Origin: Desulfobacterales bacterium
Lineage (GTDB): Bacteria; Desulfobacterota; Desulfobacteria; Desulfobacterales; UBA2245
Length of the DNA: 36,347 nucleotides
Direction: 5' to 3'
Assembly: GCA_040771865.1 (NCBI GenBank)
Contig: JAXGZF010000011.1
Coordinates: 62,001 to 98,347, forward strand
Below the pieces are notes generated by a model. It worked only from the letters and a program-made list of their open reading frames with translations. It was not told where the DNA came from and made no database searches. The translations under genes were made by a program, and so were the position numbers. Below are positions 3,665 to 36,347 of the stretch, in pieces (within the stretch, counting starts at the first letter, position 1; each line of letters starts with the position of its first letter).

Positions 3665-3807
3665 CAGGGTGTTGAAAAACAAGAATCAGGCAGTCAGGCA
3701 AGGTGCGCGCCGATACAACAAGCGCAGCATATTCAAGCAGATGTGAGCATTGGCGAGAGGCGCGCAATGCTGAATGACGGCCTCAGACGCAGTTTTTCAA
3801 CAGCCTG
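3665..3807 (+). mobile_element. 143-bp MITE, family A, copy 2
   Basis: CAGGGTGTTGAAAAAC...GTTTTTCAACAGCCTG with TTAA duplication. Confidence 0.9.
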
Positions 3808-3922
3808 TTAAAGCAATTGACTGGCGCCTGACGGATTTTTGCGTACAACCCTGTGCGAAAGGTGCACGGAACAGCGAGGAACCGGACAGTTTTGATCGTC
3901 AGTGCCGGTGACGGTCCCGGGC

Positions 3923-5615: not shown

Positions 5616-5889
5616 AACCGCTTGCTCCTTTGCGTATCAATTGAAAAGGATCGTTCGCGGAGCGCCTTCTGGCGGTCCAAAGATCCGGCCCTTTTTATCC
5701 GATTTTACGGTTTCTGGCAATCTTTAACATCGGTCGTTGACCTTCGCAATATCCGGCCTTCGGAAGCCCGGCATCGGACAGTGCGAAACAAATCACAGCG
5801 GGGAGGATCTTCAACCCATGACAGCGTTCAACCATATCTTCAGGCTTGTTCGTATTGGGAAAAAAACCGATAATGGTATGATGACATAG

Positions 5890-6032
5890 CAGGGTGTTGA
5901 AAAACAAGAATCAGGCAGTCAGGCAAGGCGCGCGGCGATGCGACAAGCGCAGCATATTCAAGCATATGTGAGCATTGGCGAGAGCCGCGCAACGCTGAAT
6001 GGCGGCCTCAGGCGCAGTTTTTCAACACCCTG
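5890..6032 (+). mobile_element. 143-bp MITE, family A, copy 3
   Basis: Same TIRs and body; ATAG duplicated on both sides. Confidence 0.9.
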
Positions 6033-6456
6033 ATAGAGAGTTTTTTATGAAAAAAGTGTCTGGGTTAAGGTGAGTTGAAGCGCTGAAGGAAGGAAATACG
6101 CATGAAAACCAGGTGGTTTACTGTTGGATGAGAACAAGACGGCGTATGATGTTGTAAAATAAAAGGAGAGGTATGTTCAAATGAGACCGGGGAAACGATT
6201 ATTTGCATGAACTGGACGGGTCGCTTTGCGTAAAGAGATATTTCAGGGTCACGGAGGATCGTACGAATCAATTTTCAGGCCAGCACAACTTAAAAAAATA
6301 CCCCGCTCAAAATCTATCGCGAATTTTGGAATCGGCCATTTTCCTTGACGAAACTGCAATTTTCTTTTATAAATCGCAAGGATTTTTGACATTCGAAGTT
6401 CTGAAATCAACCGCATACCAGAGCTGGATGCAACTTATTATTTCTTGATTGATGTA

Positions 6457-18627: not shown

Positions 18628-18919
18628 GCCTCATGGCCGAAACTCGGAAACCGGTTCATCACTCTTCGACGAAATTCATCGAGGCTTCACCAGCTGTTGA
18701 CGGCGTTTTTTTAATGAATCGCCCTTGCAATTCGATTCCGGTTTATCGACTGAAGCTCGAACTGTCCCTGCATTCAAATCAGGAATATAAACCGCCGTTG
18801 TTGATTTTGAATCGACCCAACGGGTAATTTGAATTTAATATGTTGATTTTATTATATGTTATTATTCAGATATAGTTTGACTTTCGCGAAAACCTTTTTT
18901 AGTTTGATGCTGGCATTAG

Positions 18920-19062
18920 CAGGGTGTTGAAAAACAAGAATCAGGCCGTCAGGCAAGGCGCGCGGCGATACGACAAGCGCAGCATATTCAAGCATATGTG
19001 AGCATTGTCGAGAGCCGCGCAACGCGGAATGGCGGCCTCAGACGCAATTTTTCAACAGCCTG
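18920..19062 (+). mobile_element. 143-bp MITE, family A, copy 4
   Basis: Same TIRs and body; TTAG duplicated on both sides. Confidence 0.9.
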
Positions 19063-19124
19063 TTAGACTCGTCTGATCTTACGTTTTTAATTTAACACAA
19101 TAAAACAATCAGTTAAGGACTGCC

Positions 19125-22858: not shown

Positions 22859-23029
22859 GCCGACCGTCTTTCCTTAATTCTTTGTGAGAATCAGAAATAT
22901 GGTTCGAATCGCATCCTGTTTTCATGAAGCCCGCTTTCGGCATTCGAAAGCGGGCTTCATGCCTGATTTCGCGGGTCATTTTTAAGTGAACGGATTTTTA
23001 TTTCAACAGGTTCGCCTTGTCAGGCCCCC
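22859..23029 (-). repeat. Family C repeat, copy R1 (diverged), with a 17-bp perfect hairpin at 22923-22961
   Basis: Collinear with R2-R6. Hairpin CATGAAGCCCGCTTTCG-GCATT-CGAAAGCGGGCTTCATG; shares TTTATTTCAACAGGTTCGC with R6. Confidence 0.75.
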
Positions 23030-24942
23030 TTACCCTTCGGTTCAAGCCGGCATGTCGATGTTGTGAAAACGTCTTTATCGACGCGTTCCAGACACCGCCA
23101 TCCCGTCCGGCTTAAAAATTCGCCGGCCGCATCGACCTCGGGTTCAAAAACAAAAAAGCAGACCTCATCCTCTTGTTTAAATCGCGTGCGGTCTCCAACC
23201 GGTGACAGAACGCCGTTTCGGCGCACCGCAACGGCGATCAAACCGTTTCCGGAATAACCGGCCGTAGGGCCGGCTTCGGCGTCGCCGGACGGCTCGGACA
23301 CGCATTGCCACCGCTGAAGATGGACCTGTTTGGATTTGAAGCGACGATTCCAGACCTCCACATCGACCGGCACGCTGAAAATGAGTTCGGCTGCGGATTG
23401 ATGCAGCATCCGGGTTGTCAGAGACCCCGTGTCGGTCTTCAGAGCGGCCCAGAGGGAAACCATCCTGGACTCTTCCTTCACTTTCTGAATGAACAGGTAG
23501 TTCACCTCGTCATTGGCGGTGAGCCCCAACGCGCCGCGGCGAATGTCTATTTCCGCCCGCAGCAGGCTTCTGGACTCAAGACCGTTGCCGTATATGACGC
23601 GGGTGCAGTCGTTTTCAGCCGCCGTGCAATGGTCCGCATTGGAGTCGATGAAAACGACCTCCTGACCGTCTTCCTTGAACAATCTGGCCAAACCGCGCGC
23701 CAGTGAGTTGGCGCCGAGAATGACCCAGCCTGACTGGCTGGGACGCAGCAACCCCAATAAGCCCGCCACGAAGCCGCCGGTAAGACCGGCGAACACGACG
23801 GTCACGGCAATCACCAGGAAAACCAGAGCTCGCAATTCGTAGCCGCCGGCCAGCCCCTTTTCGTTAAAGGCGGCGGCAAAAAAGGAAGCCACGGCCGCGG
23901 CCACAATCCCCCGGGGACCGATCCAGGCGATGAAAAAGCGCTCCTTCCAGTTCAGCCCGGCGAAACCGGTTCCGGCAAACACGGCCGCCGGACGGACCAG
24001 GAACATCAATGCCAGAACAACCCACATCGCAGGACGGCCGAGACCGGCGACCTGATCCAGGCGCACATCGGCGGCCAGCAGAACAAAGAGCATGCCGATC
24101 AACAGAACGGTCAGCTCCTCCTTGAATTCCACCAGATCCCGCAATGCGTAAGTGCTGAAATTGCCGATGATGATGCCGGCCATCGTCACGGCGGCGATGC
24201 CGCTTTCCGGAAGAATTGTGTTGCTGCCCTGAAAAAGGGCCAGAACGGCGGCCAGCGTGAACACGTTCTCGGTCCCTTCCGGAATCAACCGCCTGACCCG
24301 GTAAAGCGAAATCAACAAAAAACCAACCGCAACGCCGCACAGTGCGCCGAAACCGAGACGGGAAACGACGTGCCAGCCCCATACCAGCAATGTGCCGCGG
24401 GCGGGACTCAGAACCGCTTCGAGGACCACCGTGGCCACGACCGCGCCGAGAGCGTCGATCAGAACGCCTTCGGCCTCCAGCACCGTGGCTACCGATCGTT
24501 TGACCCGCAACCGTTTCAACAACGGGTTGATCACGGTGGGGCCGGTCACCATGACCAGGGTGCCGAAAAGGAGCGCGTTTTTCCAGGGCCAGTGCATGAT
24601 AAAATGCACGGATGCGGCGGCGCCGGCAACCGTCAACAGGCCGCCGAGGAGAATCAACTGCCGGATGGAGCGCTGGGCGCGTTTCAGGCGTCTGAATTCA
24701 AGGTTGAGCCCGCCTTCGAAAAGAATGACGGCCACGGCGAACCCGGTCAGAATGTTCAGGGCCGTGCCGAGGCTCTCCGGACGAATGAGGTTCGCGCCGT
24801 CCGGACCCAGGGCGACTCCGGCGGCCAGCAGCAGGACGATGCCCGGAATGCGCAGGTGGTGCGCCAGAGCCTGCGCGATCATGCCCATGGCCAGCGCCAG
24901 GGCAATGGTCAGACCCGGATGATTGAAAACGGACGGCTCCAT
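23020..24942 (-). CDS. CPA1 (NhaP-type) cation:proton antiporter with C-terminal TrkA-N-like domain
   Basis: PGIVLLL..G..LGP, VILFEGGL.L, TGPTVI.PLL, LE.EGVLID and GPRGIVAAAV, followed by soluble ILGAN..AR...IDSN. Confidence 0.92.
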   Translation of the reverse strand: MEPSVFNHPGLTIALALAMGMIAQALAHHLRIPGIVLLLAAGVALGPDGANLIRPESLGTALNILTGFAVAVILFEGGLNLEFRRLKRAQRSIRQLILLGGLLTVAGAAASVHFIMHWPWKNALLFGTLVMVTGPTVINPLLKRLRVKRSVATVLEAEGVLIDALGAVVATVVLEAVLSPARGTLLVWGWHVVSRLGFGALCGVAVGFLLISLYRVRRLIPEGTENVFTLAAVLALFQGSNTILPESGIAAVTMAGIIIGNFSTYALRDLVEFKEELTVLLIGMLFVLLAADVRLDQVAGLGRPAMWVVLALMFLVRPAAVFAGTGFAGLNWKERFFIAWIGPRGIVAAAVASFFAAAFNEKGLAGGYELRALVFLVIAVTVVFAGLTGGFVAGLLGLLRPSQSGWVILGANSLARGLARLFKEDGQEVVFIDSNADHCTAAENDCTRVIYGNGLESRSLLRAEIDIRRGALGLTANDEVNYLFIQKVKEESRMVSLWAALKTDTGSLTTRMLHQSAAELIFSVPVDVEVWNRRFKSKQVHLQRWQCVSEPSGDAEAGPTAGYSGNGLIAVAVRRNGVLSPVGDRTRFKQEDEVCFFVFEPEVDAAGEFLSRTGWRCLERVDKDVFTTSTCRLEPKGKGA

Positions 24943-25023
24943 GGAATTGATTCGATCCTGTTTCCCGGCCCGTCTTGAAACACGCGGGCGTTGCCAATGC
25001 CTGTCTACGGGCTTTCAACATAC

Positions 25024-25058
25024 CATAAATACAAGAGAACCGCTATTGATATGCGCCG
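25024..25058 (-). promoter_or_regulatory. Shared upstream motif (copy before the antiporter)
   Basis: 26/35 identical without gaps to 27533-27567; followed on the minus strand by TGG-TATGTT (extended -10-like). Confidence 0.55.
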
Positions 25059-25236
25059 TTGCCGCTATTTTTTAAAACCCGGTCGGTTTCATTGTCTAGG
25101 ATTGCATCCCGTTTTTTTTCGGTTTGTTTCCGGCACCCGCAGGTGCGTCATGACGCCTTGTTCCGCGGAACATTTTAAAGTCAACTTTTTTCAATGCGCG
25201 GCGGCCTTCTGTCCGGCGCCCGGCATCTTCCTGTAA

Positions 25237-25379
25237 GAGGGTGTTGAAAAACAAGAATCAGGCCGTCAGGCAAGGCGCGCGGCGATGCGACAAGCGCAGC
25301 ATATTCAAGCATATGTGAGCATTGGCGAAAGCCGCGCAACGCTGAATGGCGGCCTCAGGCGCAGTTTTTCAACAGCCTG
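25237..25379 (+). mobile_element. 143-bp MITE, family A, copy 5
   Basis: Same body, first base G instead of C; GTAA duplicated on both sides. Confidence 0.9.
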
Positions 25380-25390
25380 GTAAACGAGGC

Positions 25391-26047
25391 TCACTGAAGC
25401 TCCTTGATCTCTTTCAGATCCGCCTCTTTGCCTAACATCACAAGAACATCGCTGCCCTTGACGGTGAAATCGGGGCTAGGCACCATAACGAACCGCCCCG
25501 GAACCAGCTCTTTGACGGCGATGATATTGATCTCGTAGCGCCTGCGCAGATCCAGATCACTGAGCGACTTGCCGATGAAAGACGGGGGCGCGTTGACCTG
25601 GGCGATGGTATAATCTTCCGCCAGGGGCAGAAACTCCAGAATGTTGGGTGAGGTCAGCCGCAGGGCCAGGCCTTCGGCCATATCCATGCTGGGCCGAATG
25701 ATCTCCGTGGCGCCCAGCTGTTTCAGGATCTCTCCGTGATCGTCATCCTCGGCCTTGACGATGATGCGCTTGATCCCCAGACGGCTGAGGTGGAAGCAGA
25801 TCAGGATGCTGGGCTTGATATTTTCACCCGTGCTCACGATGACGGCGTCCATCTCATCGAGTCCCAGCGCTTTGAGCGCCTTGATGTCGGTTACGTCCTG
25901 CACGATGGCGCTGGTGCAATAAGGCTCGATGGCCTGCACCCGCTCCTTGTTGCGATCAATGGCGATCACCTCGTTTTCGTTTTCATACAGTGCTTTGGCT
26001 ACATAGTATCCGAAGCTCCCGGTACCGATAACGGCAAATCGTTTCAT
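25391..26047 (-). CDS. ktrA: KtrA/TrkA potassium uptake regulatory (RCK) subunit
   Basis: FAVIG.GSFG..VA..L...EVIAID Rossmann motif, GATEIIRP and a C-terminal RCK-C domain. Confidence 0.9.
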   Translation of the reverse strand: MKRFAVIGTGSFGYYVAKALYENENEVIAIDRNKERVQAIEPYCTSAIVQDVTDIKALKALGLDEMDAVIVSTGENIKPSILICFHLSRLGIKRIIVKAEDDDHGEILKQLGATEIIRPSMDMAEGLALRLTSPNILEFLPLAEDYTIAQVNAPPSFIGKSLSDLDLRRRYEINIIAVKELVPGRFVMVPSPDFTVKGSDVLVMLGKEADLKEIKELQ

Positions 26048-26065
26048 GGCTGCCTCACGCTTTGC

Positions 26066-27430
26066 TTATCCGATCATCATGTTCTCCTCGGCGTACTGAA
26101 TGCCTCTCGTCGAACCTCCCCCCGCGATAATGTAGGTAAAGGCCGGAACTCCCACCCGGCCGACGATCATCAACCCGATGATTACGAGTTTTCCGGACAG
26201 GGTCAACACCGGGGTGACGCCCATGGAGAGGCCCACCGTCCCGAAGGCCGAAACCGTTTCAAAGAGAAAGCTTAAAAATTGACGATTCCCCTGTATGCGC
26301 ACGCCGTGATCCGGATCGATGAACAGAATCGCAAAGACGGCGATACAGATGACGGCCAGCGAAAAAACCAGCACGGAAATGCTCTTGGTGACCGTCTCGT
26401 CCGGAACGGTCTTGCCGAAGAGATTCACGCATTTGCAGCGTATCAGGCGGCTCCAGGAAAAAGCGGTCAGCACGGCGAATGTCGTCGTCTTGATGCCGCC
26501 TCCGCAAGACCCCGGGGAGGCGCCCACCAGCATCAGAAACATCATGAACAGCAGGGTGGCCGTATTCAGGGAGGCAATATTCAGGGTATTGAACCCGGCG
26601 GTACGGCAGGTCACGGATTGAAATGCCGCGGCCAGAAGTCCCTTGCCCCATCCCAGAGTGGGGAGCAGAGTCCGTTCGGATACCAGGATCACCAGGATGC
26701 CGGCCAGGGTCAGCCCGATGCTTGCCGCGATCACGCTTTTGGTCTGAATCGACACCTTGCCGGTTTCCCGCGAAACAGCGCGGCGGTAGAACTCATAAAC
26801 CACCGGGAAACCGATGCCGCCCAGAATGATCAAACCGCACACCGTCAAATTTAAGACCACGGACGACCGGCCGGCCATCAGACTGTCGCTGAATTGCGAA
26901 AAACCGGCATTGCAAAAAGCGGAAACGGAATGGAAAACGGCCTTGTAAATCGCCTCGCCAGGCGGGAAGGCGGAGCGCCAGTAAAAAAACAGGATCACGG
27001 CGCCCACGGCTTCGATCGAAAGCGTAAAAATCAGCACCGAGCGGATCAGTGAATATATATCCTCCCGCGGCGTATGGGAAAACACCTCCTGCATCGCCAT
27101 GCGCTGCTGAAACACCACCTTTTTGCCGATGATCTGAAACAGAGCCACTGAAATCGTCATGATCCCCAATCCGCCGATCTGAATCAGAAAGAGGATCACC
27201 CCCTGGCCGAATGCAGTGAAACAGGAACCGGTATCCACCACGATCAGTCCGGTTACGCACACGGCGGAGGTCGCCGTAAACAATGCGTCGATCGCGCCGA
27301 TGCAACCACTTGCCGTGGCGGCCGGCAGCATCAGAGCCGATGTGCCGGCGGCAATGGCCGCCAGGTAGCTCATGAACAGCAGGCTGGTGGGATGCATTCG
27401 ATTTAAGCGGCTTTGTAGCCAGTTGGACAT
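26066..27430 (-). CDS. ktrB: KtrB/TrkH potassium uptake membrane subunit
   Basis: FTATSAVCVTGL, SAFCNAGF, RTAGF, PGSCGGGIKTTT and SAFGTVGLSMG pore loops. Confidence 0.93.
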   Translation of the reverse strand: MSNWLQSRLNRMHPTSLLFMSYLAAIAAGTSALMLPAATASGCIGAIDALFTATSAVCVTGLIVVDTGSCFTAFGQGVILFLIQIGGLGIMTISVALFQIIGKKVVFQQRMAMQEVFSHTPREDIYSLIRSVLIFTLSIEAVGAVILFFYWRSAFPPGEAIYKAVFHSVSAFCNAGFSQFSDSLMAGRSSVVLNLTVCGLIILGGIGFPVVYEFYRRAVSRETGKVSIQTKSVIAASIGLTLAGILVILVSERTLLPTLGWGKGLLAAAFQSVTCRTAGFNTLNIASLNTATLLFMMFLMLVGASPGSCGGGIKTTTFAVLTAFSWSRLIRCKCVNLFGKTVPDETVTKSISVLVFSLAVICIAVFAILFIDPDHGVRIQGNRQFLSFLFETVSAFGTVGLSMGVTPVLTLSGKLVIIGLMIVGRVGVPAFTYIIAGGGSTRGIQYAEENMMIG

Positions 27431-27532
27431 TTGGTCTCACTATCCACATTCGTTGTTTGCGACTTCGGCCTTCTTCCGGGTCTTTTCATAAACCTCCCTG
27501 AATAGATGCCTGCTTGCCGCCTATCGGAATAG

Positions 27533-27567
27533 CACAAATACTTGTAAAAGGCGATTGATATGCACCG
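27533..27567 (-). promoter_or_regulatory. Shared upstream motif (copy before ktrB)
   Basis: CAYAAATAC-N9-GCKATTGATATGCRCCG on the + strand, matching 25024-25058. Confidence 0.55.
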
Positions 27568-27643
27568 GCACCGTTGTCCTTTTATAAATCTTCTCTGATC
27601 GTGCGATTGCTGCGGATTCAGCCGGACGGTCCGCTTCCGAACC

Positions 27644-27744
27644 GCCGGCCGACTTTCCCTGGTTCTTTGTGAATTTCAGAAATACGGTTCGAATCGCACC
27701 CTGTTTTCATGAAGCCCGTTTTCGGCATTCGAAAGCGGGCTTCA
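27644..27744 (-). repeat. Family C repeat, copy R2 (partial; cut off by a MITE variant)
   Basis: About 100 bp closely matching 22859-22959, including the GAAGCCCG...CGGGCTTC hairpin. Confidence 0.8.
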
Positions 27745-27745
27745 A

Positions 27746-27854
27746 CAGCAGGATGTTGAAAACAAGAATCAGGGCGTCAGACAAGGCGCAGCAAGCATGC
27801 GCGAGAAGCCGCGCAACGCCGCATGGCGGCCTTGGCGCGGCTTTCAACGCCCTG
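27746..27854 (+). mobile_element. Short diverged variant of MITE family A
   Basis: CAGGATGTTGAAAACAAGAATCAGG...GCCGCGCAACGCC...TTTCAACGCCCTG; central hairpin missing; TCAA on both flanks if the left end is taken at 27746. Confidence 0.75.
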
Positions 27855-29051
27855 TCAAGCCTTGAATGCATTGACCCCTTCATTCCAGGCCTCCATCATG
27901 CGTTCACCGATTTCGCGAAACTCCGGGTGGTCGGCAATATAGCCGGGAATCAGCGCCCGGGTCTCGGTCACGGCCTGGGCCATCCGGTCGATGATGCCGG
28001 CAGCCGTTGCCGGCGGCAGCGAAAGATGGGCCACGGAAAAGCGATCCAGCAGCTTGCGCGGCCACCACTTCCTGGTTCCCGCAAGCGTCAGGGCAGGAAC
28101 GTCGTTTCGAATATAGGCCGTGGTTGTCACCAGATCATAAACCGGCGCCAGTTCGACCATGCCCATGGGGTCTGCGTACAGCACGCCGAAGTTTTTCAAA
28201 TGCGCGTCGCCGTTTCGCAGCATGACCGACAACGCCAGGGTGGAAAAGAACTGTTCCCTGGCGGTCTTCAGGCAGGGCCCGGAAACAAACTCCCGAATCG
28301 TTTTGGCCGCGCGTTCATAGCTGCCAGAGTATTTCTGAGAGGTTCCCAGGGCCTGAAGGCTGCACATGTCTTCAAAGCCGATGGAGTCTCCGTCGGAAGT
28401 AACGTCAAATCGGCGCATAATGAAAAGACCGCCGTTATTCGAAAGAAAGAAATCCGGGGTCGGCAGTCCGGCGCGTCGGGCCGCCGTCATGCAGAAATAC
28501 TCGTTGGCGGCCAGAAACGGGTAATCAGCGCCCCACGACTTGACGATATAACCTGCCGAAGCCAGAGTGCTCCGTTCGGATGCCTCCAGCAGCACCTTGG
28601 GCTGAACGCCGGATATGCCGGAACGCAGGGCATACCTGTCCACGAGTTCATGAAACAGTTCCGCGGCGTCGGGATAGGCAAGCAGCTCATCCAGAGACTC
28701 AGGCGTTTCGGAAACGCGCGGGAATGAATCGCCGGAAAGCGCGAACCGGTTTCTCCCCACCTGATTTCCGCCCGTTACCCGCAGAATGGACAGATCATCC
28801 TCGCCGATGATCTTGGCAATGGCCCTGCGAATGGCATCCAGCAGGGCGCCCTCCGGAAGGTTCATCTGGAAGACGGGATGCAGTTCGCGGCTGACCCAGC
28901 TCTCAATCCGCACCGGCATGGTCAGGGACACCTGAGCATCAGCGCTTGCATCCGGTTCATAGGCAAACACGTATTTCTGCTGCCGCTCACGGGCCAGAAG
29001 CCCGGAACGCCGGTTGCCCGACCACACGGAAAGGGAGGAAACGCCCGGCAT
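27855..29051 (-). CDS. hipA: HipA-family Ser/Thr kinase toxin
   Basis: N-terminal F.Y...VSLTMP, GISGVQPK Gly-loop, NEYFCM, FEDMC, NGDAHLKNF and LAPVYD. Confidence 0.93.
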   Translation of the reverse strand: MPGVSSLSVWSGNRRSGLLARERQQKYVFAYEPDASADAQVSLTMPVRIESWVSRELHPVFQMNLPEGALLDAIRRAIAKIIGEDDLSILRVTGGNQVGRNRFALSGDSFPRVSETPESLDELLAYPDAAELFHELVDRYALRSGISGVQPKVLLEASERSTLASAGYIVKSWGADYPFLAANEYFCMTAARRAGLPTPDFFLSNNGGLFIMRRFDVTSDGDSIGFEDMCSLQALGTSQKYSGSYERAAKTIREFVSGPCLKTAREQFFSTLALSVMLRNGDAHLKNFGVLYADPMGMVELAPVYDLVTTTAYIRNDVPALTLAGTRKWWPRKLLDRFSVAHLSLPPATAAGIIDRMAQAVTETRALIPGYIADHPEFREIGERMMEAWNEGVNAFKA

Positions 29052-29296
29052 CAGACGATCTCCTCTTCACGGAGTTCTTCCAGCGTGGGCGGTCTGCCCG
29101 CGGGGCGAACCCGCAGTTCCAGGCCGAGGAATTCAAGCGCCCGGATCAGCTTGCGCACGCCGATTTCCTGCACGGTTCCGTTTTCGATCTGCCCGATGGT
29201 GGTGCGGCTCATGCCGATGGCTTTGGCCAGATCCGCCTGGGTGATTTTGCGGGTCTTTCGCGCCTGTCGAATTTTTTTTCCAATAGCAAACAGCAT
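29051..29296 (-). CDS. hipB: HipB-like XRE HTH antitoxin
   Basis: IG..IR..RK...TQ..LA...G.SR.TI..IENG; stop overlaps the hipA start (TGATG). Confidence 0.88.
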   Translation of the reverse strand: MLFAIGKKIRQARKTRKITQADLAKAIGMSRTTIGQIENGTVQEIGVRKLIRALEFLGLELRVRPAGRPPTLEELREEEIV

Positions 29297-29298
29297 AA

Positions 29299-29358
29299 AT
29301 GCATTATATGTAAATCATTTTATGTTTTCAATGCTTATTTGCATTTGATATAATGCAT
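29299..29358. promoter_or_regulatory. Inverted repeat upstream of hipB (putative autoregulatory operator)
   Basis: ATGCATTATAT (29299-29309) and ATATAATGCAT (29348-29358) in an AT-rich promoter region. Confidence 0.55.
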
Positions 29359-29907
29359 ATCATGCCCGGCGGTCCATTTTGCCGGCTGGCCGCCGATTGC
29401 GGCATCTCCGTGGATACGGCCCGGCGCTGGATCTCGGTGCTGGTTGCCAGTTTCATCGTTTTTCTCCTGCCGCCCCACCACCGCAATTTCAACAAACGGG
29501 TGATCAAAAGCCCCAAGCTCTATTTCTACGACACCGGCCTGCTCTGCCATCTGCTGGGCATCCGCCAGGCGGACCAGCTCGTAAACCACCCGCTGAGAGG
29601 CCCCGTTTTCGAAAACCATGTGGTGGCGGAAACCGCCAAAGCCTATACACACCACCGCCGGACCCCGCCCCTGTTTTTCTGGCGCGACCGGTCCGGTCGT
29701 GAAATCGATCTGATCATCGAAGAAGCCGGCACCCTCTTTCCCGTGGAGATCAAATCGGGCATGACCGTATCGTCGGACATGCTCGACAGTCTGCGCTGGT
29801 GGACCGCTCTCAGCGGTCAATCAACCGCCTGCGCCACCCTCGTCTACGGAGGCGGCGATTTCCAGACCCGTCACGGAATCGCCGTACGGCCCTGGTTCGC
29901 GATCTGA
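29353..29907 (+). pseudogene. DUF4143 C-terminal half of an AAA_14-DUF4143 ATPase (5'-truncated)
   Basis: LA.D.GIS..T...WISVL.ASF, KRVIKSPKLYFYDTGL, FEN.V..E and EIDL...PVEIKS; Walker A/B domain absent. Confidence 0.8.
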
Positions 29908-29915
29908 TCCGCCTC

Positions 29916-30082
29916 CGCCCGCTTTTTCATGGCGCTTTTTGAGGATTGGAAATACGATTCGGATTGTGCCTGTTTTCTTAAAGCGGGCTTTTTGTCACCC
30001 AAAAGTGCGTTTTAAGCCCTTTTTCGCGGCTCATTATTATTAGAATTGTTTTTATTTCAATATGTTCGCTTGGCCCGACCCC
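29916..30082 (-). repeat. Family C repeat, copy R3
   Basis: Near-identical to 31708-31874; ends in GCTTGGCCCGACCCC. Confidence 0.9.
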
Positions 30083-30109
30083 GAAACCACAAGCCACAAG
30101 CGGGAACAT

Positions 30110-31267
30110 TCATAAAAATTCACCGGACATAAACGGGTTTTCGATTCGGATGCCGCTTACGGTCAGGCTTTTCTCGCCGTTATAGAAAATACGTCCTTCC
30201 TGGCAGCGGTCGCCCGCGACATTCCGAAACCGCTCGATCCCCTTGATGAACTGAGGGTGAAAGGTCTCCGCCGATTTGATTTCCACGGGAATCAATTTTC
30301 TTTGCGCTTTAAAGATAAGATCCACTTCGTTGCCGTTGGTGTCCCTGTAAAAATAGAGTTCAGGTCTTTTCCCTGCATTGGTCTGGTTTTTCAGGATTTC
30401 CAGAAGAACCAGGTTTTCAAAAAGCGCCCCGCGCAAAGGATCGCGACTGGCCTGTTCCGCGGTTTCGATGCCCAGTAGAAAGGAGAGAAGCCCCGTGTCG
30501 CTGAAAAAGATTTTCGGTGATTTGATAACCCGCTTTCCGATATTTTCGTGAAAAGGAGCAAGTTCCCAGACCACGAAGGAAGCCTTGAGAACGCTTATCC
30601 AGTTCTTGACGGTCGTTCCCGAAACACCGACATCGTTGCTGAGGGAGGCATAGTTGATCACCTGTCCGACCCGGCCGGCAAGAAGGACAAAAAACTGCTG
30701 AAACTGCCTGAGATCTTTCAGATTGATCAAGGCGCGGACATCTCTTTCCACATATGTTTGGAGATAACTGTTGAAGAAACGGCCCGGCGCAAGTCCGTCC
30801 TCATGAAGACGCGGGTAAGCGCCCTTCACGATCAAATCGAACGGGTCCCAGTCCTGCCGATAATTCTGCAATTCCTTGAAGGAAAACGGGAAGAGGGTCA
30901 ATACCGCCGTCCGGCCGGCCAGAGATTGGCTGATACCCTGCTGAAGTTCGGGCTGGTGGCTCCCGGTCAGGATAAACATGCTCCTTTTCCGCGTAGCATC
31001 CACAATGCCCTGAAGATATGAAAGCAGTAACGGAAGACGCTGAATTTCATCCAGCACCGCGCCTTCCGGAACCCTCGAAAGAAAGCCTCTGGGGTCCGCC
31101 TCCGCAGCCATGCGGACATCCGGATCTTCGAGGGAAAAATACGGCTTGTCCGGAAATGTTGTCCGGGCAAGGGTGGTTTTCCCCGATTGACGCGGTCCCA
31201 GGATGGTCGCCACCGGATATTCAGCGACGGCGGCAAGCAGCTCGGATGTGATGTCTCGCGTGATCAT
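30110..31267 (-). CDS. AAA_14 + DUF4143 ATP-binding protein
   Basis: GPRQSGKTT Walker A, LDEIQ Walker B, LTGS, SLAGR, YVERDV, KSPKIFFSDTGL and EVD...PVEIKS. Confidence 0.93.
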   Translation of the reverse strand: MITRDITSELLAAVAEYPVATILGPRQSGKTTLARTTFPDKPYFSLEDPDVRMAAEADPRGFLSRVPEGAVLDEIQRLPLLLSYLQGIVDATRKRSMFILTGSHQPELQQGISQSLAGRTAVLTLFPFSFKELQNYRQDWDPFDLIVKGAYPRLHEDGLAPGRFFNSYLQTYVERDVRALINLKDLRQFQQFFVLLAGRVGQVINYASLSNDVGVSGTTVKNWISVLKASFVVWELAPFHENIGKRVIKSPKIFFSDTGLLSFLLGIETAEQASRDPLRGALFENLVLLEILKNQTNAGKRPELYFYRDTNGNEVDLIFKAQRKLIPVEIKSAETFHPQFIKGIERFRNVAGDRCQEGRIFYNGEKSLTVSGIRIENPFMSGEFL

Positions 31268-31372
31268 AGGTACTTATACCAATAAATTATGAAAATCTCA
31301 AGTTGAACTTTGGATTCTCATAAACTGACTGTTTCTAACGGACATCCCCGTCCGCATGCTCGAATAGGCATC

Positions 31373-31708
31373 CTATTTGAAAGCTTGGCCCCGTTCAATC
31401 ACTGCAAGGTTCAGAAGCAATGATTCAACCAAATCCAGCATTTGATTGAGTTTTTCGCCGAAATCATCGGCCGAAAAGCTTCTCAGGCTCATGCCGGCGT
31501 GGTTGATGTCGTTTCGCAATTCCCGCAAGGTGGAAGCCGCTTTTTCTATCTCCGGCACGGTTTGAATCGCCCTGACCAGCCGGCGGGTCAGTTCTTTATT
31601 GTCTCCGGCATCGCGCTTCCAGTCGTTTTCGGGCTTTTTCCGATTTACGATGTCTAACGCCTGGGATGCAATTTCACGTGTTGTGATATCGGTGATCTGT
31701 TCCGACTC
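31373..31708 (-). pseudogene. C-terminal HEPN fragment of a Csx1/Csm6-like (TM1812-type) nuclease
   Basis: Frame is open from the edge of repeat R4 with no convincing start: ...REIASQALDIVNRKKPENDWKRDAGDNKELTRRL...LRELRNDINHAGM (RxxxxH motif)...FGEKLNQML. Confidence 0.7.
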
Positions 31709-31874
31709 GCCCGCTTTTTCATAGCGCTTTTTGAGGATAGGAAAAACGATTCGAATTGTGCCTGTTTTCTTAAAGCGGGCTTTTTGACACCCAAAAGTGC
31801 GTTTTAAGCCCTTTTTCGCGGCTTATTTTTATTTGAATTCTTTTTATTTCAATATGTTCGCTTGGCCCGACCCC
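31708..31874 (-). repeat. Family C repeat, copy R4
   Basis: Near-identical to R3; ends in GCTTGGCCCGACCCC. Confidence 0.9.
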
Positions 31875-31887
31875 GTATCCCTAATCG

Positions 31888-31982
31888 TTTTTTGATATCA
31901 AAAAGTGCATTTTAAGCCCTGTTTTGCGGCTGATTTTTAATTGATTTGTTTTGATTTCAAAATCTTAGCTTGGCCCGACCCC
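31888..31982 (-). repeat. Family C repeat, copy R5 (short, in tandem with R4)
   Basis: TTTTTGA...AAAAGTGCATTTTAAGCCCTG...ATTTCAA...GCTTGGCCCGACCCC. Confidence 0.85.
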
Positions 31983-32530
31983 ACTTCCATATATGCCTGC
32001 CGGCTGAAAAAGGATCTGTTTTGGATTGCATCCCCCAGGCGCTCCAGTTCGGGATTGTCTGTCAATGTTTCTTTGGCCTTATTAAAATATTCTTCAATCG
32101 TGCGTTGAGGGTTTGGTGCGCCGGATTGCGGGTCCACGAATGCCAGCGCCACAAGCAAACCGAAATTCCAATCCGCCATTCCGGGCGCTTTTCGAAGTTC
32201 TTTGTACAGATCATGAAGGAGATCGACATGGCTCTCGGGAACCGTTTTTTCCTCTAACAGGGCGTTGAAAAACAAGACTCAGGCCGTCAGGCAAGGCGCG
32301 CGGCGATGCGACAAGCGCAGCATATTCAGGCATATGCGAGCACTGGCGAGAGCCGCGCAACGCTGAATGGCAGCCTCAGGCGCAGTTTTTCAACAGCCTG
32401 CCAAGGCAAGCTCCCACCGAAAAAGAGGAACATCCATCGACAGATGTTCAAGAATGCATTGGACCCGCTGTTCCGCATTCTCCCCGCTGTCATAGAGGCT
32501 TAGGCTCGGACTTTCATACCACAGACTCAT
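31983..32530 (-). pseudogene. Hypothetical gene split by MITE copy 6 and 3'-truncated by repeat R5
   Basis: AGGAGG RBS before ATG 32530 (MSLWYESP...). Removing the MITE plus one 4-bp duplicate joins RWELA to LEEKTVPE in frame, and the frame runs into GGGGTCGGGCC without a native stop. Confidence 0.7.
32258..32400 (+). mobile_element. 143-bp MITE, family A, copy 6 (intragenic)
   Basis: Same TIRs and body; flanks CTAA / CCAA (one mismatch). Confidence 0.9.
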
Positions 32531-32560
32531 TATCGATCCTCCTGTTCCATCGTATTCATT

Positions 32561-32673
32561 CCGTTTCCTTAGAGCCCGCTTTTTGACGCCCAAAAGTGGG
32601 TTTTAAGCCCTGTTTTACGGCTCATTTTTATTAAAATTCTTTTTATTTCAACAGGTTCGCTTGGCCCGACCCC
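32561..32673 (-). repeat. Family C repeat, copy R6
   Basis: Hairpin TTAGAGCCCGCTTTT...AAAAGTGGGTTTTAA and terminal GCTTGGCCCGACCCC. Confidence 0.88.
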
Positions 32674-33109
32674 ATGCCTCGTCAAAATTTGTAGTGAATA
32701 CGCAAGGGACAAGACGGGTAGTCAATAGTGAGCCGATGACACGGTGGGCAAACGATGGGGTTCCTTTTCTAATTGCCTTTTCTATGTATTTTCGGCGATC
32801 TTCTGGGGCAGGGAAAATGGCTTCAAATGCCGCTGCATATTCAGTCGGATCGTCAGCTGGCGGAAGAACAGCGTGATTGCTGGAAAATAGATTCGTCCTT
32901 TCAATCCAGAGTGGGTCGTTGGTGTCCACTTCCCTACGGCCAACACCGGACAACTGACAAAATAATCGCTTTTTGAAGTCCTGGATCATTGCATAGCCAG
33001 TAGGAATACCTGCGGAGGCGGACGCACCGGCACCTAGGAGCCAGGTAAACTGCTGCGGCTTCAGGCAGAACATATTTGCGAACTGCGGTCCGGTTAATGT
33101 CCTTATCAT
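32648..33109 (-). pseudogene. SIR2-like NADase, N-terminal fragment truncated by repeat R6
   Basis: WLLGAGAS.SAGIPT, PS.AH and FTTNFD motifs. The last residues (WGRAKRTC) are encoded by the repeat, and the catalytic-His region is missing. Confidence 0.85.
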
Positions 33110-33176: not shown

Positions 33177-34961
33177 CTATTGTTTCTCAAAAACTTCGAT
33201 CAAATTCCCATCCGGATCGAGACATCTGAAAAACCGGCGAGATGATTGTCCCCAGTTTTCAAGTTTGGTCACAATCTGGACCTTGTTTTCCATAACCGCT
33301 TTAAATTTGTTCGGGATCTCCGCCACTTCAATATAGAGAAGAGACCGGAATCCGACTCCAGGGAAGTTCTTAGCGTAAGATGCGGGTGCGAGGACCAGCC
33401 CTTGGTGGAAGACAACCACGTCCTGCGATTCCTTCTTGATGCTAAGCCCCAGCAGCCCCTTATAGAAGCGGACCGACTTTTCCATAGAATACACCGGCAG
33501 CTTCGGACCAAAACTCAATCGCTCCAGCAAGGGCTGGGGTTGGCGCTGATTTTCTGAGGTTTTCCCTATAAATGAAGTGATGGTGGTTCGCCGCTGAGCC
33601 GGTTGCCATCCGAAGTCCCCCTTGGAAATCTTGTTGAGATAGATTGTTTGGCCGTCTTCCGTAGTGAGTTTCAGGAATTCAACCTTGAATTTCCCGCTGC
33701 TTCCGACCTGATCCGGGCTACGGCTCACCGTCGCCTTGCGGCGATCGGGAAGTCTGGTTTCCCTCGCGTTGGGAGCCGCCACCACGTCGTCGATCCAGTT
33801 CTTGAGGGAGGTCCTTCTGAGCGGCTCAATACTGGCCTTGTCATCTACTTGGCCACCCGCCAAGCGCGACGCGCATTTCTCGATATAGCTCGCGTCCTGG
33901 ATACCTTGTTTTACCGTCGATAGCCAGTCTGAACCATTGATACAGCCGAGCAGGCCGCCTGTCATCGAGGCAATCGTGTCGGTGTCCGAACCGATTGCGA
34001 ATGCGGCCTTCACCACGCCGTTGATCGGGTCGGCGGCGTGGCGCGACGCGAGATACACCGCCGCGATCGCCGCCACGGTCCCGGCACCGCTAATCTTGCT
34101 GAAGCACTGGAGCTTTTTCAGCACATCGTCATCGAAACTCAACGCCCCCTTCGCGAGTTCTGTTCTGCAGACCTCGAGATATTCCAAGACCTCGGCCTTG
34201 GCCGATTCCCAAAGCTTTGCGTAGGCTTGGAGGCTTTTTTCCGCTTGGCTCTTCCATTCGGGCTGGATGGTCGGGGCGGTTGGAAAAGTGGACCAGACCT
34301 CTGCGTTTTTGATCAAATCCTCCACCAATTCACCATACGCCAGTTTCGAATCCTTGCGGAAAGCCGCCCACAGTGCGAAACCGTAGGCCAAAGCGCCCAA
34401 AAGCGCCCGGGGGTGTCCATGGGTCGTGACGCCGTCAAGGAATATGTTGGCGGCGATCTCAGGATACTCTTTTTCGCCCAAGCGCAAGACATGCGGCAGG
34501 ACGCGCATCGCGACACCGTTGCCGCCCGCGTCGAAATAACGCTTCACATCCTGGGGCTTCCGGTTCGGACTCCATGGCGCGATCCCATCCAGCCACGAAT
34601 CGATCGCTCTCTTGGTCGCGCCGCCCCCGCCACGTTCATAAGCGGACCAAAAGGGCAGCTCCACCTGAGTGAAGTAGTCCCACCAGACCTCCCCTTTCAA
34701 AAGCGACCGGCAGAGGCAAAGAATAAGCTGTGTGTCGTCGCTGTACTCGCCAGCCTCAATAGTCTCCTCGTGAGGAAAAAAACGCCCACCCGAGCGGCGG
34801 GTCCAGCTTCTGAAATCATGGAGACGGCCCTGTGGTTGTTTTTGCACTTTCGACTTGCCGACCCGTTCATTCGGCCAGCCTAACGCGTCGCCGCAGGCCG
34901 CAGCCAGCATGGCACCCACGGCCTTGCTCGCTTTCAACTTTATTGTAATGTTATCGGCCAT
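33177..34961 (-). CDS. ADP-ribosylglycohydrolase (ARH/DraG family) fused to a C-terminal VOC/glyoxalase-like domain
   Basis: GAML..ACGDALG, YSDDTQL, GNGVAMR, THGH and GSDTDTIASMTG.L.G; C-terminal V.SMEKS.RFY..LLGL...FRCLDPDGNLIEVFE. Confidence 0.9.
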   Translation of the reverse strand: MADNITIKLKASKAVGAMLAAACGDALGWPNERVGKSKVQKQPQGRLHDFRSWTRRSGGRFFPHEETIEAGEYSDDTQLILCLCRSLLKGEVWWDYFTQVELPFWSAYERGGGGATKRAIDSWLDGIAPWSPNRKPQDVKRYFDAGGNGVAMRVLPHVLRLGEKEYPEIAANIFLDGVTTHGHPRALLGALAYGFALWAAFRKDSKLAYGELVEDLIKNAEVWSTFPTAPTIQPEWKSQAEKSLQAYAKLWESAKAEVLEYLEVCRTELAKGALSFDDDVLKKLQCFSKISGAGTVAAIAAVYLASRHAADPINGVVKAAFAIGSDTDTIASMTGGLLGCINGSDWLSTVKQGIQDASYIEKCASRLAGGQVDDKASIEPLRRTSLKNWIDDVVAAPNARETRLPDRRKATVSRSPDQVGSSGKFKVEFLKLTTEDGQTIYLNKISKGDFGWQPAQRRTTITSFIGKTSENQRQPQPLLERLSFGPKLPVYSMEKSVRFYKGLLGLSIKKESQDVVVFHQGLVLAPASYAKNFPGVGFRSLLYIEVAEIPNKFKAVMENKVQIVTKLENWGQSSRRFFRCLDPDGNLIEVFEKQ

Positions 34962-35649
34962 GAAGACCTCCGTTCTTATATAGCGTTTCCGACGCCCGGT
35001 CTCCGCGTTGAATCATCCGCGAGAGCGAGGTTTTGTTAAAGAAGTCCGGAGCGATGTAAATCGGTTTATCAATAGTGATTCCCTGCAGGCGCAGTCGGCA
35101 AATTTCCCGTTGTGCCTGCTCTTCTGTATGAACAGCGATACCGGCAATTGAATCAAGTGGAATCGGGTCCCTGAGAAGAACTTCCGCCTGTATATCAGTC
35201 GGCGCTGCGGGAAGATGTCTCGCGGACCGAGTATAAGCAGTGAACCCGGGAGATGTCGGGGCAAAAAGAGAGCGGAACCCCTCAATCCCCGTTCGGATGT
35301 ACCCGCCGCGAGAGCGTGCCGCGTTGCACGGGCAAAAACATGTCTCAGGGTGCCACAGGTAACTGGGATCGATCATCAACACGACCCAGTCCTTGAAAAG
35401 AGGCTCACGTTCCCGGACCTTGAGGAAGTAATAGGTGTTCGGGTACTCGATGGAGCAACAGATCAGATCGTTTCTTCCGTCAAACCGTTCCGTGTCTGTC
35501 GGATTGTGCGGTAAATCATGTTCCTGTAGCGTCCTGGTCGAACAAAGCCCCAACGGATAGTCAAAGATATGGGCCAGGCTTCGCGACTGCGTGAAATGGC
35601 AGATCCGGGTGATCCCACGACTGGCGCACTCTTGTCGGATCAAGTTCAT
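34951..35649 (-). CDS. DarT-like (DUF4433) DNA ADP-ribosyltransferase
   Basis: N-terminal HFT...L..I...GL, RFDG....ICCSIEYPN..Y, NAA and QAEVL....IP...I, which carries the catalytic-Glu motif of DarT. Confidence 0.8.
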   Translation of the reverse strand: MNLIRQECASRGITRICHFTQSRSLAHIFDYPLGLCSTRTLQEHDLPHNPTDTERFDGRNDLICCSIEYPNTYYFLKVREREPLFKDWVVLMIDPSYLWHPETCFCPCNAARSRGGYIRTGIEGFRSLFAPTSPGFTAYTRSARHLPAAPTDIQAEVLLRDPIPLDSIAGIAVHTEEQAQREICRLRLQGITIDKPIYIAPDFFNKTSLSRMIQRGDRASETLYKNGGLHGR

Positions 35650-36347
35650 GGCTTGACCCTCTGGTAGAGTGACTCGTCTGTCGGGAGCAGTGGCGTGAGC
35701 GCACCGCTGTAAAGCAGGATCAGGTTCGTTTTCGCCCGGGTCGCCGCCACATAGAGAAGTCTGCCGTCGTGGGTGAGGGCGTCTTCTTCCCCGTGGGACG
35801 CTATGTAATCCTTGTCAGGAAGGTTGTCGACGTCCAGAAAAGGAACTATCACCACATCAAACTCAAGCCCCTTAGCCGCATGGTAGGTGCCGTGGTATAT
35901 GCCGGGGCCGTCGTTCCAAACCTTAAGGTCGCGATGAAGCCTGGTCGCCTCGCCCCCGAGGGCCGCGCTGAAGACCTTCTCCTGCGCCCTGTCTCTTACG
36001 AGGATGGCAACGCTCAGTGTTTTGGCGGCGCTCCTTGCTGCCTTAAGGGCGATCTCCACCTGCTGCTTCCTGTCCCCGCACTCGACCAAAGTAGGCAGAG
36101 CGCCATCAGCTCTTGGGGAGGTCGGCTCAACCAGATCAGGGATATCGTGAAAGAAAGGCATCCTTGAGATTGCCAACCCAAGCTGGGCAATCTGTTTGGT
36201 GTTCCGGTAATTTTCCTTAAAGAACCATTGCTGGGGGATGTGCAACCCAGCGGAGCGCCAGCTCATCCGCTGCCCGTAGATTTGTTGGGCGACATCCCCG
36301 AAGAACGAAAGAGAACCGTCCTCGGGAATCGCCGCTACCAACGAGCG
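35646..36347 (-). CDS. UvrD-like superfamily 1 helicase, C-terminal part (5' end outside the window)
   Basis: FGD.AQ.IY (motif III), ENYRNT.QIA (IV), TYHAAKGLEFD.V (V) and LLYVAATRA (VI); frame is open to the window edge. Confidence 0.9.
   Translation of the reverse strand, partial: RSLVAAIPEDGSLSFFGDVAQQIYGQRMSWRSAGLHIPQQWFFKENYRNTKQIAQLGLAISRMPFFHDIPDLVEPTSPRADGALPTLVECGDRKQQVEIALKAARSAAKTLSVAILVRDRAQEKVFSAALGGEATRLHRDLKVWNDGPGIYHGTYHAAKGLEFDVVIVPFLDVDNLPDKDYIASHGEEDALTHDGRLLYVAATRAKTNLILLYSGALTPLLPTDESLYQRVKP

Follow-up and report, generated by a model that had tools for sequence, protein, structure and literature searches.

The window analyzed here is a stretch of 36,347 nucleotides from a Desulfobacterales bacterium (GenBank assembly GCA_040771865.1, contig JAXGZF010000011.1, positions 62,001–98,347 of the forward strand), and the subject of this study is a repeat, family C, of which six copies (R1–R6) lie between window positions 22859 and 32673. 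We consider it probable, at roughly 75%, that family C is the terminal module of an element of the TIRYT/TIRtron type, which encodes a RAYT-like Y1 HUH tyrosine transposase. The six copies in the window are orphan gene-proximal (5′) modules that are not accompanied by a transposase gene; they mark the breakpoints in a patchwork island of defense and toxin-antitoxin genes. The sharp end of the repeat is the true outer terminus of the element, and cutting and rejoining of DNA by the transposase would accordingly be expected there. Family C does not represent a novel type of site; its architecture has already been described as TIRYT/TIRtron. A first-pass annotation of the window had stated that its interpretation would be refuted if the repeat were simply the end of a known insertion sequence, and this is what it is insofar as it is the end of the TIRtron/TIRYT element type described in the available parts of PMC3733652.

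Repeat Copies in the Window

Repeat finding and alignment over the whole window confirmed that the six copies are collinear and share one orientation. The 15-mer GCTTGGCCCGACCCC occurs four times, always on the plus strand, with ends at 30082, 31874, 31982, and 32673, as compared with an expectation of 0.17, and none of 100 shuffled sequences reached four; these are the four exact ends that had been recognized before. A degenerate 28-mer that also fits the variant end of R1 gives five plus-strand matches in the window versus 0.00 expected. No inverted partner of the end was found in the window by repeat search or nhmmer, and no copy of the family lies in the window outside 22859–32673. The earlier statement that the repeat has no terminal inverted repeats holds within the window but not elsewhere, where the same end is a terminal inverted repeat. 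The copies are as follows.

22859–23028 (+): R1, orphan terminal module with the variant end GCCTTGTCAGGCCCC, from repeat finding, alignment, and the degenerate 28-mer; nhmmer match 22925–23028
27643–27878 (+): R2, with the inner part of the module at 27643–27744, a nested piece of a D1-type miniature inverted-repeat transposable element (MITE) at ~27745–27850, and a probable terminus at 27873–27878
29893–30082 (+): R3, orphan terminal module, from repeat finding, the 15-mer, and nhmmer
31685–31874 (+): R4, orphan terminal module, from repeat finding, the 15-mer, and nhmmer; its inner end adjoins a Csx1/HEPN C-terminal fragment
31876–31982 (+): R5, short module of ~95–107 nt, head to tail, 13 nt past the R4 sharp end
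32555–32673 (+): R6, minimal module of ~115 nt that comprises the inverted-repeat tip, the AT-rich spacer, and the palindrome

R2 had been regarded as simply a short copy. Instead, a D1 MITE is nested inside it, and it probably keeps a degenerate terminus, ...TTGACCCC, at 27873–27878; the end of its orthologue in a sister genome is intact. The inner end, previously described as ragged (~95–170 bp), is more regular than that: R1–R4 have in common with the sister-genome copies an inner boundary ~185–195 nt from the sharp end, and R6 (~115 nt) and R5 (~95–107 nt) are shorter. R3 and R4 are 94% identical over 173 nt, with similarity that continues ~25 nt further inward. Units of ~190 nt that share one inner boundary are present at no fewer than five different sites in this lineage (the Desulfobacteraceae copies).

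The Same End in Other Genomes

A 28-nt degenerate pattern of the end was scanned against 185,579 species genomes, and the matched stretches, at least 80 in number, were collected as loci designated L001 and so on. They are spread over Thioalkalivibrio, many Desulfobacterota, Terriglobia, Nitrospirota, Aminicenantes, Omnitrophota, and others; some of the loci are orthologous to each other and are therefore not independent. The last 28 nt are nearly invariant among the loci, and similarity ends abruptly past the CCCC. All-against-all clustering of the open reading frames (ORFs) within 6 kb, over the loci returned, yielded a sole recurrent neighbor, one ORF family found at 14 loci. The recurrent ORF encodes ~260–300 aa on the opposite strand and starts ~60–140 nt inside the sharp end.

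Eight of the nine recurrent ORFs tested match Pfam Y1_Tnp, and the best NCBIfam match is the REP-associated tyrosine transposase (NF047646, REP_Tyr_transpos) in 8 of 8, with 54–72 bits against a cutoff of 80. These scores exceed those of the IS200 model, NF033573 giving weak matches only. In the recurrent ORFs, neither the histidines of the HUH motif nor the catalytic Tyr vary. A profile of eight proteins searched against PDB has its best match in 4ER8 (Escherichia coli TnpA_REP; E = 5e-5), ahead of the ISDra2 transposase, and a phmmer search of PDB with one of the proteins gave nothing at E 0.01. At E 1e-3, Pfam recognizes only Y1_Tnp in the main clade, and a C-terminal part of ~130 aa has no match to a helix-turn-helix (HTH) domain. 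The protein family is very large, with E values of 1e-10 or better in 7985 of 8000 scored candidate protein clusters, and the source names of its proteins are "transposase" or "REP element-mobilizing transposase RayT." A protein search of a plasmid collection returned 25 records, all below 60% identity, the best of those listed being ~25–33% identical.

The first-pass annotation had suggested either a single-strand HUH mechanism, of RAYT or IS91 type, or a site-specific recombination site, and had pointed to proximity to Y1/HUH transposase genes as a check. The link to a RAYT-type enzyme is supported by the Y1_Tnp, NF047646, and 4ER8 matches and by the lack of target duplications described below, and the proximity by the Y1-family ORF at 14 loci. 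IS91-like chemistry is not supported because the recurrent neighbor is a single-tyrosine Y1 protein and not a Y2 protein. Nor is a site-specific recombination site supported or shown. No integrase or recombinase besides the Y1 protein recurs near the ends among the window ORFs, in the ORF clustering, or in the annotated arrays.

An origin from DDE transposition was also considered, with the repeat representing either a DDE-type MITE or an inverted repeat from a transposon that belongs to the Tn3 family or another DDE group. The GGGGTC start of the end presumably resembles the inverted repeats of the Tn3 family, for which one-ended transposition is known. Tn3 elements, however, have inverted repeats of ~38 bp, a 5-bp target duplication, and a DDE transposase of ~1000 aa, whereas the elements found here are just ~930–1080 bp long, the 40 inverted pairs of ends lack target duplications, and the ORF clustering of the loci returned identified no recurrent large DDE transposase near the ends, the sole recurrent neighbor being the Y1 gene. 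An origin of this kind is hardly tenable.

In metagenome-assembled genomes of Thioalkalivibrio (L021/L043/L056/L058 and L025/L057/L060), the full element occupies the same chromosomal site in several species, and the outer flanks match over ~1.5 kb at 76–92% identity. The element looks vertically inherited in these genomes, a pattern that domesticated RAYTs are also reported to show.

Full, Miniature, and Orphan Forms

The full element, which carries one gene, is bounded by inverted copies of the end that bracket this gene, and the sharp end forms the outermost part of each terminal inverted repeat. The inverted arms measure 19–33 nt in four of the five elements examined (none is reported in L069), and in L057 the inverted similarity reaches ~90 nt inward. 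Inverted-end pairs number 40, some of them overlapping and L069 included, and span 168–1140 bp. None of the 40 is flanked by direct repeats, which agrees with the earlier observation that target duplications are lacking, and the flanks beside the ends show no common target. Full elements such as that of L057 (10816–10935) have a 3′ inverted-repeat module that overlaps a conserved C-terminal peptide of the transposase (..AAYxADFGxEK..), so that the subterminal palindrome is part of the coding sequence at one end of the element but not at the opposite end.

An nhmmer model of the module identified 167 ends with a sharp terminus in the window and 76 loci. They comprise (i) 34 bounded elements, of which 20 are miniature (167–410 bp) and 14 measure 645–1082 bp, and (ii) 99 orphans. 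Orphans outside the window keep variable pieces of the transposase gene beside the fixed end, from aa 1–26 up to aa 1–135, or C-terminal pieces. A truncated unit of 297 nt is present twice in L041 at 99% identity with different flanks. In L042 (4339–4395), two ends lie head to head with their inner sides 6 nt apart, a minimal palindromic "element" that consists of two tips.

Anatomy of the Module

Each terminal repeat consists of an outer tip, GGGGTCGGRCCAAGC..TTGAAA, an AT-rich spacer, and a pseudo-palindrome. The palindrome of R1 (22921–22961) has a perfect 17-bp stem with a DNA fold of −22.5 kcal/mol (z = −8.3), and single-sequence DNA folds confine the strong hairpin to some lineages. Inward sigma-70-like sites of the general form TTGAAA-16/17-AAAAAT are present in five copies as matches to the consensus.

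30033–30060 (−): TTGAAA-16-AATAAT in R3
23006–22978: equivalent site in R1
31852–31825: equivalent site in R4
31960–31933: equivalent site in R5
32651–32624: equivalent site in R6

Between 22700 and 32800 there are 12 sigma-70-like sites, five of them inside modules, and 5.4 would be expected for the whole region. The TTGAAA (−35) box belonged to the search pattern, and its occurrence is therefore informative for the copies in the window only.

This clustering of promoter-like sites, together with the location of R2 upstream of ktrBA, of R4 upstream of the Csx1 fragment and the ATPase gene, and of R6 upstream of the 32530 gene, would suit a regulatory or transcribed repeat of the host, namely a shared promoter or 5′ untranslated region or a small RNA recruited before island genes, in which the palindrome could serve as a plus-strand terminator. 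R1, R3, and R5, however, lack a downstream gene that they could transcribe, the promoters are proposed from agreement with a consensus only, and a search of Rfam at the gathering threshold gave no match in the window. The attachment of the end to a transposase gene in many phyla is what a mobile element would show, in contrast to a host regulon, and we regard a host regulatory function as unlikely. A tRNA-linked attachment site of the island or a known RNA was also considered and is not supported, the tRNA/tmRNA search of the window having been as empty as the Rfam search. A sigma-54 promoter, considered from the sequence, was dropped.

Micro-duplications at the Junctions

Just outside the sharp end there are often short tandem repeats with a unit composed of a suffix of the element terminus and the first 6–12 nt of the flank. 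The suffixes are C, CC, CCCC, GACCCC, and up to TGGTCCGACCCC, and there are 2–5 repeats. Units of ≥8 nt with ≤1 mismatch were identified at 29 of 166 junctions as compared with 100 of 7988 random positions, a 14-fold enrichment; for units of ≥10 nt, the corresponding counts are 15 of 166 and 20 of 7988. Examples are found at the following positions.

L013: 6195
L024: 10001
L036: 10001
L069: 10001
L074: 10028
L078: 6119
Window: 30083–30100, in the outer flank of R3, where CCACAAG is present twice

As a speculation, the micro-duplications may have been left by synthesis that was primed repeatedly from a nick and slipped at the terminus.

Genes of the Window and Where the Repeats Cut Them

On the minus strand, the order is DarT, an ADP-ribosylglycohydrolase fusion, the SIR2-APAZ piece, R6, the 32530 gene, R5, R4, the Csx1/HEPN fragment, the ATPase gene, and R3, followed by a 5′-truncated DUF4143 gene (on the other strand), hipBA, R2, ktrBA, the Kef-type exchanger, R1, and the first conserved gene. 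The cargo list given in the first-pass annotation was correct. The genes next to the repeats are as follows.

32674–33109 (−): N-terminal 145 aa of a SIR2-APAZ protein of the type associated with prokaryotic Argonaute (pAgo); profile positions 1–130 of 558, E 2e-56
31983–32530 (−): 32530 gene, with a ribosome-binding site and ATG at 32530; split by a D1 MITE at 32249–32413 and entering R5 without its own stop
31373–31708 (−): C-terminal fragment of a Csx1/Csm6-type CARF-HEPN protein; frame open up to the R4 inner end
30110–31267 (−): complete AAA_14+DUF4143 ATPase, PADLOC candidate PDC-S01; stop 28 nt before the R3 sharp end
29353–29907 (+): 5′-truncated DUF4143 gene, profile positions 35–160 of 160; ends at the inner side of R3
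27855–29296 (−): hipB (29051–29296) and hipA (27855–29051)
23020–27430 (−): ktrB, ktrA, and Kef-type Na/H exchanger, with a D1 MITE at 25228–25392 within the block

The SIR2-APAZ fragment stops exactly at the sharp (GGGG) end of R6, and the profile match, which ends at R6, bears out the cut that had been noted there; the window contains neither the remainder of the gene nor a pAgo gene. The open frame of the Csx1-like fragment likewise agrees with a start at the inner end of a repeat. The cut proposed for the 32530 gene is upheld in that the gene runs into R5 without its own stop, but its truncation is not confirmed by homology and the gene is also split by D1; a look-up of the fragment in the ESM Atlas gave no score of 0.9 or above. 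The hipA ORF extends ~23 nt into the putative R2 terminus, and the stop of the Kef-type exchanger ORF is 8 nt inside R1. A second defense-type gene cut at a terminus is found in the sister-genome locus L006 (9324–10043, plus strand), where a DUF1016 (YhcG-like) gene that keeps N-domain positions 1–114 of 137 runs into the sharp end of a module at 10001.

At the edge of the window (33177–36347, minus strand), the DarT-like gene (34951–35649, minus strand) lies upstream of a fusion of 594 aa between an ADP-ribosylglycohydrolase and a glyoxalase (33177–34961, minus strand), which occupies the position expected for the macrodomain protein DarG. These two genes are preceded by a gene for a UvrD/GajB-like helicase, which runs off the window so that its C-terminal part is included.

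A second repeat family, D1, is an imperfect palindrome of ~165 nt with ends GTTGAAAAAC/GTTTTTCAAC, of which six copies are on the plus strand and one is on the minus strand.

1500–1676 (−): D1
3656–3820 (+): D1
5881–6045 (+): D1
18911–19075 (+): D1
25228–25392 (+): D1
27745–27850 (+): D1, partial
32249–32413 (+): D1

The copy at 25228–25392 is flanked by a (G)TAA duplication and is missing from the orthologous site of the sister genome L039 (7138–7141), and D1 therefore looks like a recently mobile DDE-type MITE. An isolated ORF of 112 aa at 1047–1385 (plus strand), which has only the HTH domains of an IS630-type transposase, is probably a remnant of another insertion sequence.

Comparison with Related Genomes

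The sister genome L039 (Desulfobacteraceae UBA2245) has the segment R1-kef-ktrAB-R2 in common with the window at 92–95% identity. Beyond the R2 sharp end, L039 has 250 bp, another module, RhuM, and an IVP protein, whereas the window has hipBA onward, and beyond the R1 inner end L039 carries an extra 1.7 kb. The comparison of cargo order between relatives that had been proposed as a check thus gives divergence at both places. In L043 and L057, and not in L056, a unit of ~870 nt that ends in a module directly follows the sharp end of the full element. L041 has a cassette-like duplicate of a gene 3′ end together with a module.

Many modules adjoin housekeeping genes, for example ftsZ, tex, and biotin carboxylase. 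This is one of several features that would suit inert relics, that is, decayed insertions in a permissive island, in which the cuts, the strain differences, and the co-orientation result from deletion, homologous recombination, and chance with no one-ended mobility. The window has no enzyme and contains other mobile debris (the D1 MITEs and the IS630-like fragment), the difference between L043/L057 and L056 can be read as a loss through recombination between direct repeats, and the chance of six of six copies being co-oriented is only ~0.03. However, complete symmetric elements cannot yield orphan ends by recombining, and the orphans (99) outnumber the bounded elements (34). The common inner boundary of the ~190-nt units, which occupy at least five sites in the lineage, and the 297-nt unit duplicated between different flanks also argue against relics, as does the enrichment of junction micro-duplications, which points to activity at the end itself. 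Inert relics are a possible account, which we do not favor.

Arrays, Orientation, and Cargo

Among neighboring orphan ends within 6 kb, 25 are co-oriented and 6 opposed (22:6 without the window; 16:5 by locus, p = 0.027), in keeping with the orientation bias anticipated from the window; the effect of distance on this count is considered with the reservations below. Head-to-tail pairs of modules 88–190 nt apart are present in L005, L015, L023, L031, L041, and the window, and in L001 a degenerate end immediately precedes the modules. A lenient motif test for head-to-tail neighbors was uninformative (17 of 161 versus 324 of 4000 random windows). The arrays outside the window have the following cargo.

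L001: PIN-Phd, DUF4160/DUF2442, ParE, RHH-PIN, and HigBA
L041: PIN, DUF433/DUF5615, and HicA
L006: ResIII, DUF1016, DUF3800, and a phosphatase
L076: RHS, DUF3800, and an intact TIRYT

In a sampled comparison, Pfam matches of toxin-antitoxin type were obtained for 14 of 150 ORFs no more than 1.5 kb from an orphan end and 5 of 150 ORFs at least 4.5 kb away, an enrichment that is marginal (p = 0.055; p = 0.20 without three ambiguous families), with 8 of the 14 coming from L001 and L041 and with short contigs in the near set that the far set cannot include. The orientation of genes relative to the module is not fixed, L041 being opposite to the window, and an all-against-all comparison of the flanks found no cargo moving with the module between genomes. 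Literature searches found no description of toxin-antitoxin arrays at the inverted repeats of HUH transposases and, for the terminal 12-mers, unrelated primer matches only.

Another co-oriented repeat family occurs in toxin-antitoxin-rich arrays. It ends in ...GCAACGTCCCCC(AAAA) or ...CGTCCCC, with a terminal C run, and may be the end of a second, related element.

L041: 722–767, 1833–1878, 4858–4903, 5423–5468, and 6613–6658
L001: 4361–4377, 4538–4554, and 3383–3430

The arrays could be taken for an integron-like platform of gene capture, in which the sharp end is a recombination or origin site and a module with its adjacent genes is inserted beside resident ends, always the same way round. 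The co-oriented arrays of L001, L041, L006, L076, and the window, with their small cargo of toxin-antitoxin or defense type, are consistent with such a platform, as are the closely spaced head-to-tail pairs, the modules of L001 that follow a degenerate end, the ~870-nt unit after a resident sharp end, the duplicate in L041, and the cargo difference between the window and L039 at the R2 sharp end. All of these patterns can also be obtained by insertion followed by homologous recombination, however, and a capture platform is opposed by the lack of traveling cargo in the flank comparison, the lack of a recurrent integrase or other recombinase near the ends, the free gene orientation, and the marginal toxin-antitoxin enrichment. 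Judged from the sequence, a core site of attC type is lacking: in ...TTNGC..., the base that precedes TT is variable, and the boundary lies after GACCCC. We consider a capture platform improbable. The cassette-like partitioning proposed in the first-pass annotation has some merit as a description, given that co-oriented arrays recur and that cargo differs at repeat boundaries between two related genomes, but integron-like shuffling that acts on defense cargo is not shown.

Proposed Mechanism and Reservations

From the known behavior of HUH Y1 enzymes, the transposase of a TIRYT-type element would be expected to nick single-stranded DNA right after ...GACCCC. Copying from the nick that is one-ended or ends prematurely could then give rise to orphan units able to multiply, and co-oriented modules would constitute portable homology for RecA-type deletion or exchange of the intervening DNA. 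Two steps, the insertion of a module into a gene and its subsequent recombination with another co-oriented module, would produce both a gene cut exactly at the sharp end (SIR2-APAZ and the DUF1016 gene of L006) and a fragment that starts at the inner end (Csx1). The inward promoter-like site may read into whatever lies downstream now.

In a more far-reaching version, the orphan modules are active one-ended origins, at which a Y1 nick in trans and strand-displacement copying build co-oriented toxin-antitoxin and defense cassettes in an integron-like manner but run by an HUH enzyme. The strand-displacement copying would leave the stuttered duplications at the junctions and would mobilize a module with neighboring DNA to sites beside resident ends. 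We regard this version as doubtful.

Several points weigh against interpreting family C as the end of a TIRYT-type element with the mechanism outlined above. (i) The window contains neither a transposase gene nor a remnant of one (best tblastn E = 0.047), as the first-pass annotation had also concluded, and any activity would depend on an enzyme from another part of the genome, which is assumed to act in trans. (ii) The position of cleavage after the terminus is predicted only from the boundary in the sequence. (iii) The scan pattern favors ends that bear TTGAAA, and the census of at least 80 loci is incomplete and biased. (iv) Inverted pairs ≤1.3 kb apart were taken out as bounded elements, so that the orientation bias is inflated at short range; for pairs >1.3 kb apart, with two misclassified L021 pairs dropped, the ratio is 11:3 (p = 0.057). 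(v) The orientation of the ends shows no tie to local GC skew (21 negative versus 13 positive loci, p = 0.23), and an IS608-type lagging-strand rule is thus not supported by this crude proxy. (vi) The palindrome is strong in the window copies and weak family-wide, with z below −2 in 21 of 69 modules, and RNAalifold gave no consensus structure for the 69 modules. (vii) Should the window derive from short-read assembly of a metagenome, a repeat of 110–190 nt could have given rise to chimeric joins, in which case a plain insertion would look like a truncation; independent support, from L039, extends to R1 and R2 only.

Relationship to Known Systems

The closest match is to the RAYT-like genes with long flanking inverted repeats that Di Nocera et al. 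(2013, PMC3733652) named TIRYT, the units being TIRtrons. In the available parts of that paper, a GGGGWSAS start is given for some repeats only, the repeats are described as moderately abundant families that are single, dimeric, or grouped, and their spread by TIRYTs is proposed and not tested there. The related loci have the same composition, a Y1 HUH gene homologous to TnpA_REP between repeats, a gene that the window does not have, and their flanks are long terminal inverted repeats with no REP hairpins. The ends likewise occur as orphans, bounded pairs, head-to-tail pairs, and arrays. With respect to GGGGWSAS, the majority start GGGGTCGG agrees at 7 of 8 positions, GGGGTCAG at the left ends of L066 at 8 of 8, and GGGGCCTG in R1 of the window at 6 of 8. 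As far as the available parts of Quentin et al. (2018, PMC6006769) go, TIRYT corresponds roughly to TnpA_REP subclass 2.1, with C-terminal tails that are Bac_DnaA_C, HTH_23, or HTH_28-like, whereas the main clade here has no C-terminal HTH match in Pfam at E 1e-3 and is not assigned to that subclass. The portions of these two papers at hand do not mention a composite module of ~110 nt, orphans with a fixed inner boundary, junction micro-duplications, or arrays of defense and toxin-antitoxin genes; both call for biochemical tests of TIRYT.

The RAYT/REP/REPIN/BIME systems have the closest enzyme family, by the NF047646 and 4ER8 matches, and resemble the elements described here in having one gene and many short non-coding copies as singlets, doublets, and clusters. 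The conserved site of the Thioalkalivibrio gene across species is a further likeness to domesticated RAYTs. TnpA_REP processes single-stranded REPs, according to the available part of PMC8266576. The repeats differ, being ~110–190 nt long with a sharp outer terminus as compared with REP hairpins of 20–40 nt tagged with GTAG, and the hairpin is weak in most lineages here. With scores of 54–72 bits below the cutoff of 80 and no GTAG-tagged hairpin in the flanks, the elements are not REPtrons.

IS200/IS605 elements and PATEs share the Y1 HUH transposase, the lack of target duplication, the precise ends, and short non-autonomous derivatives. In IS200/IS605, however, the two ends differ from each other and do not form inverted repeats, and insertion takes place 3′ of a tetra- or pentanucleotide that is fixed, whereas the present elements have inverted repeats, variable flanks, and no lagging-strand signal and do not belong to that family. 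As in IS91, ISCR, and Helitron elements, one end is defined and the other variable, and adjacent DNA is sometimes duplicated (L041; R3/R4), but those elements have a Y2 Rep-like HUH protein and ori/ter ends, in contrast to the single-tyrosine Y1 protein that recurs here. Integrons are similar in that co-oriented repeats part small cargo that is often of toxin-antitoxin type and differs between strains. They differ in that no intI was found among the window ORFs or in the annotated arrays, there are no R″/R′ core sites and no GTTRRRY at the boundary, cargo orientation is free, and the repeat here belongs to a transposon.

Implications

With the identification of family C as a TIRYT-type end, what had been taken for a new recombination site becomes a defined element that can be tested. 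Elements of the TIRYT type are very widespread, and their 28-nt terminus hardly varies from one phylum to another. From the sharp boundary and the strong enrichment of micro-duplications at the junctions, the site at which the enzyme would cut can be guessed precisely, and the function of RAYT-like enzymes with inverted repeats thereby becomes directly assayable with oligonucleotides. For annotation, the modules of ~110–190 nt mark breakpoints that truncate defense genes (SIR2-APAZ, Csx1, and DUF1016) and are likely places for assembly breaks or wrong joins. The traits of interest in the family are its co-oriented orphan ends, the micro-duplications at their junctions, and the toxin-antitoxin-rich arrays in other genomes.

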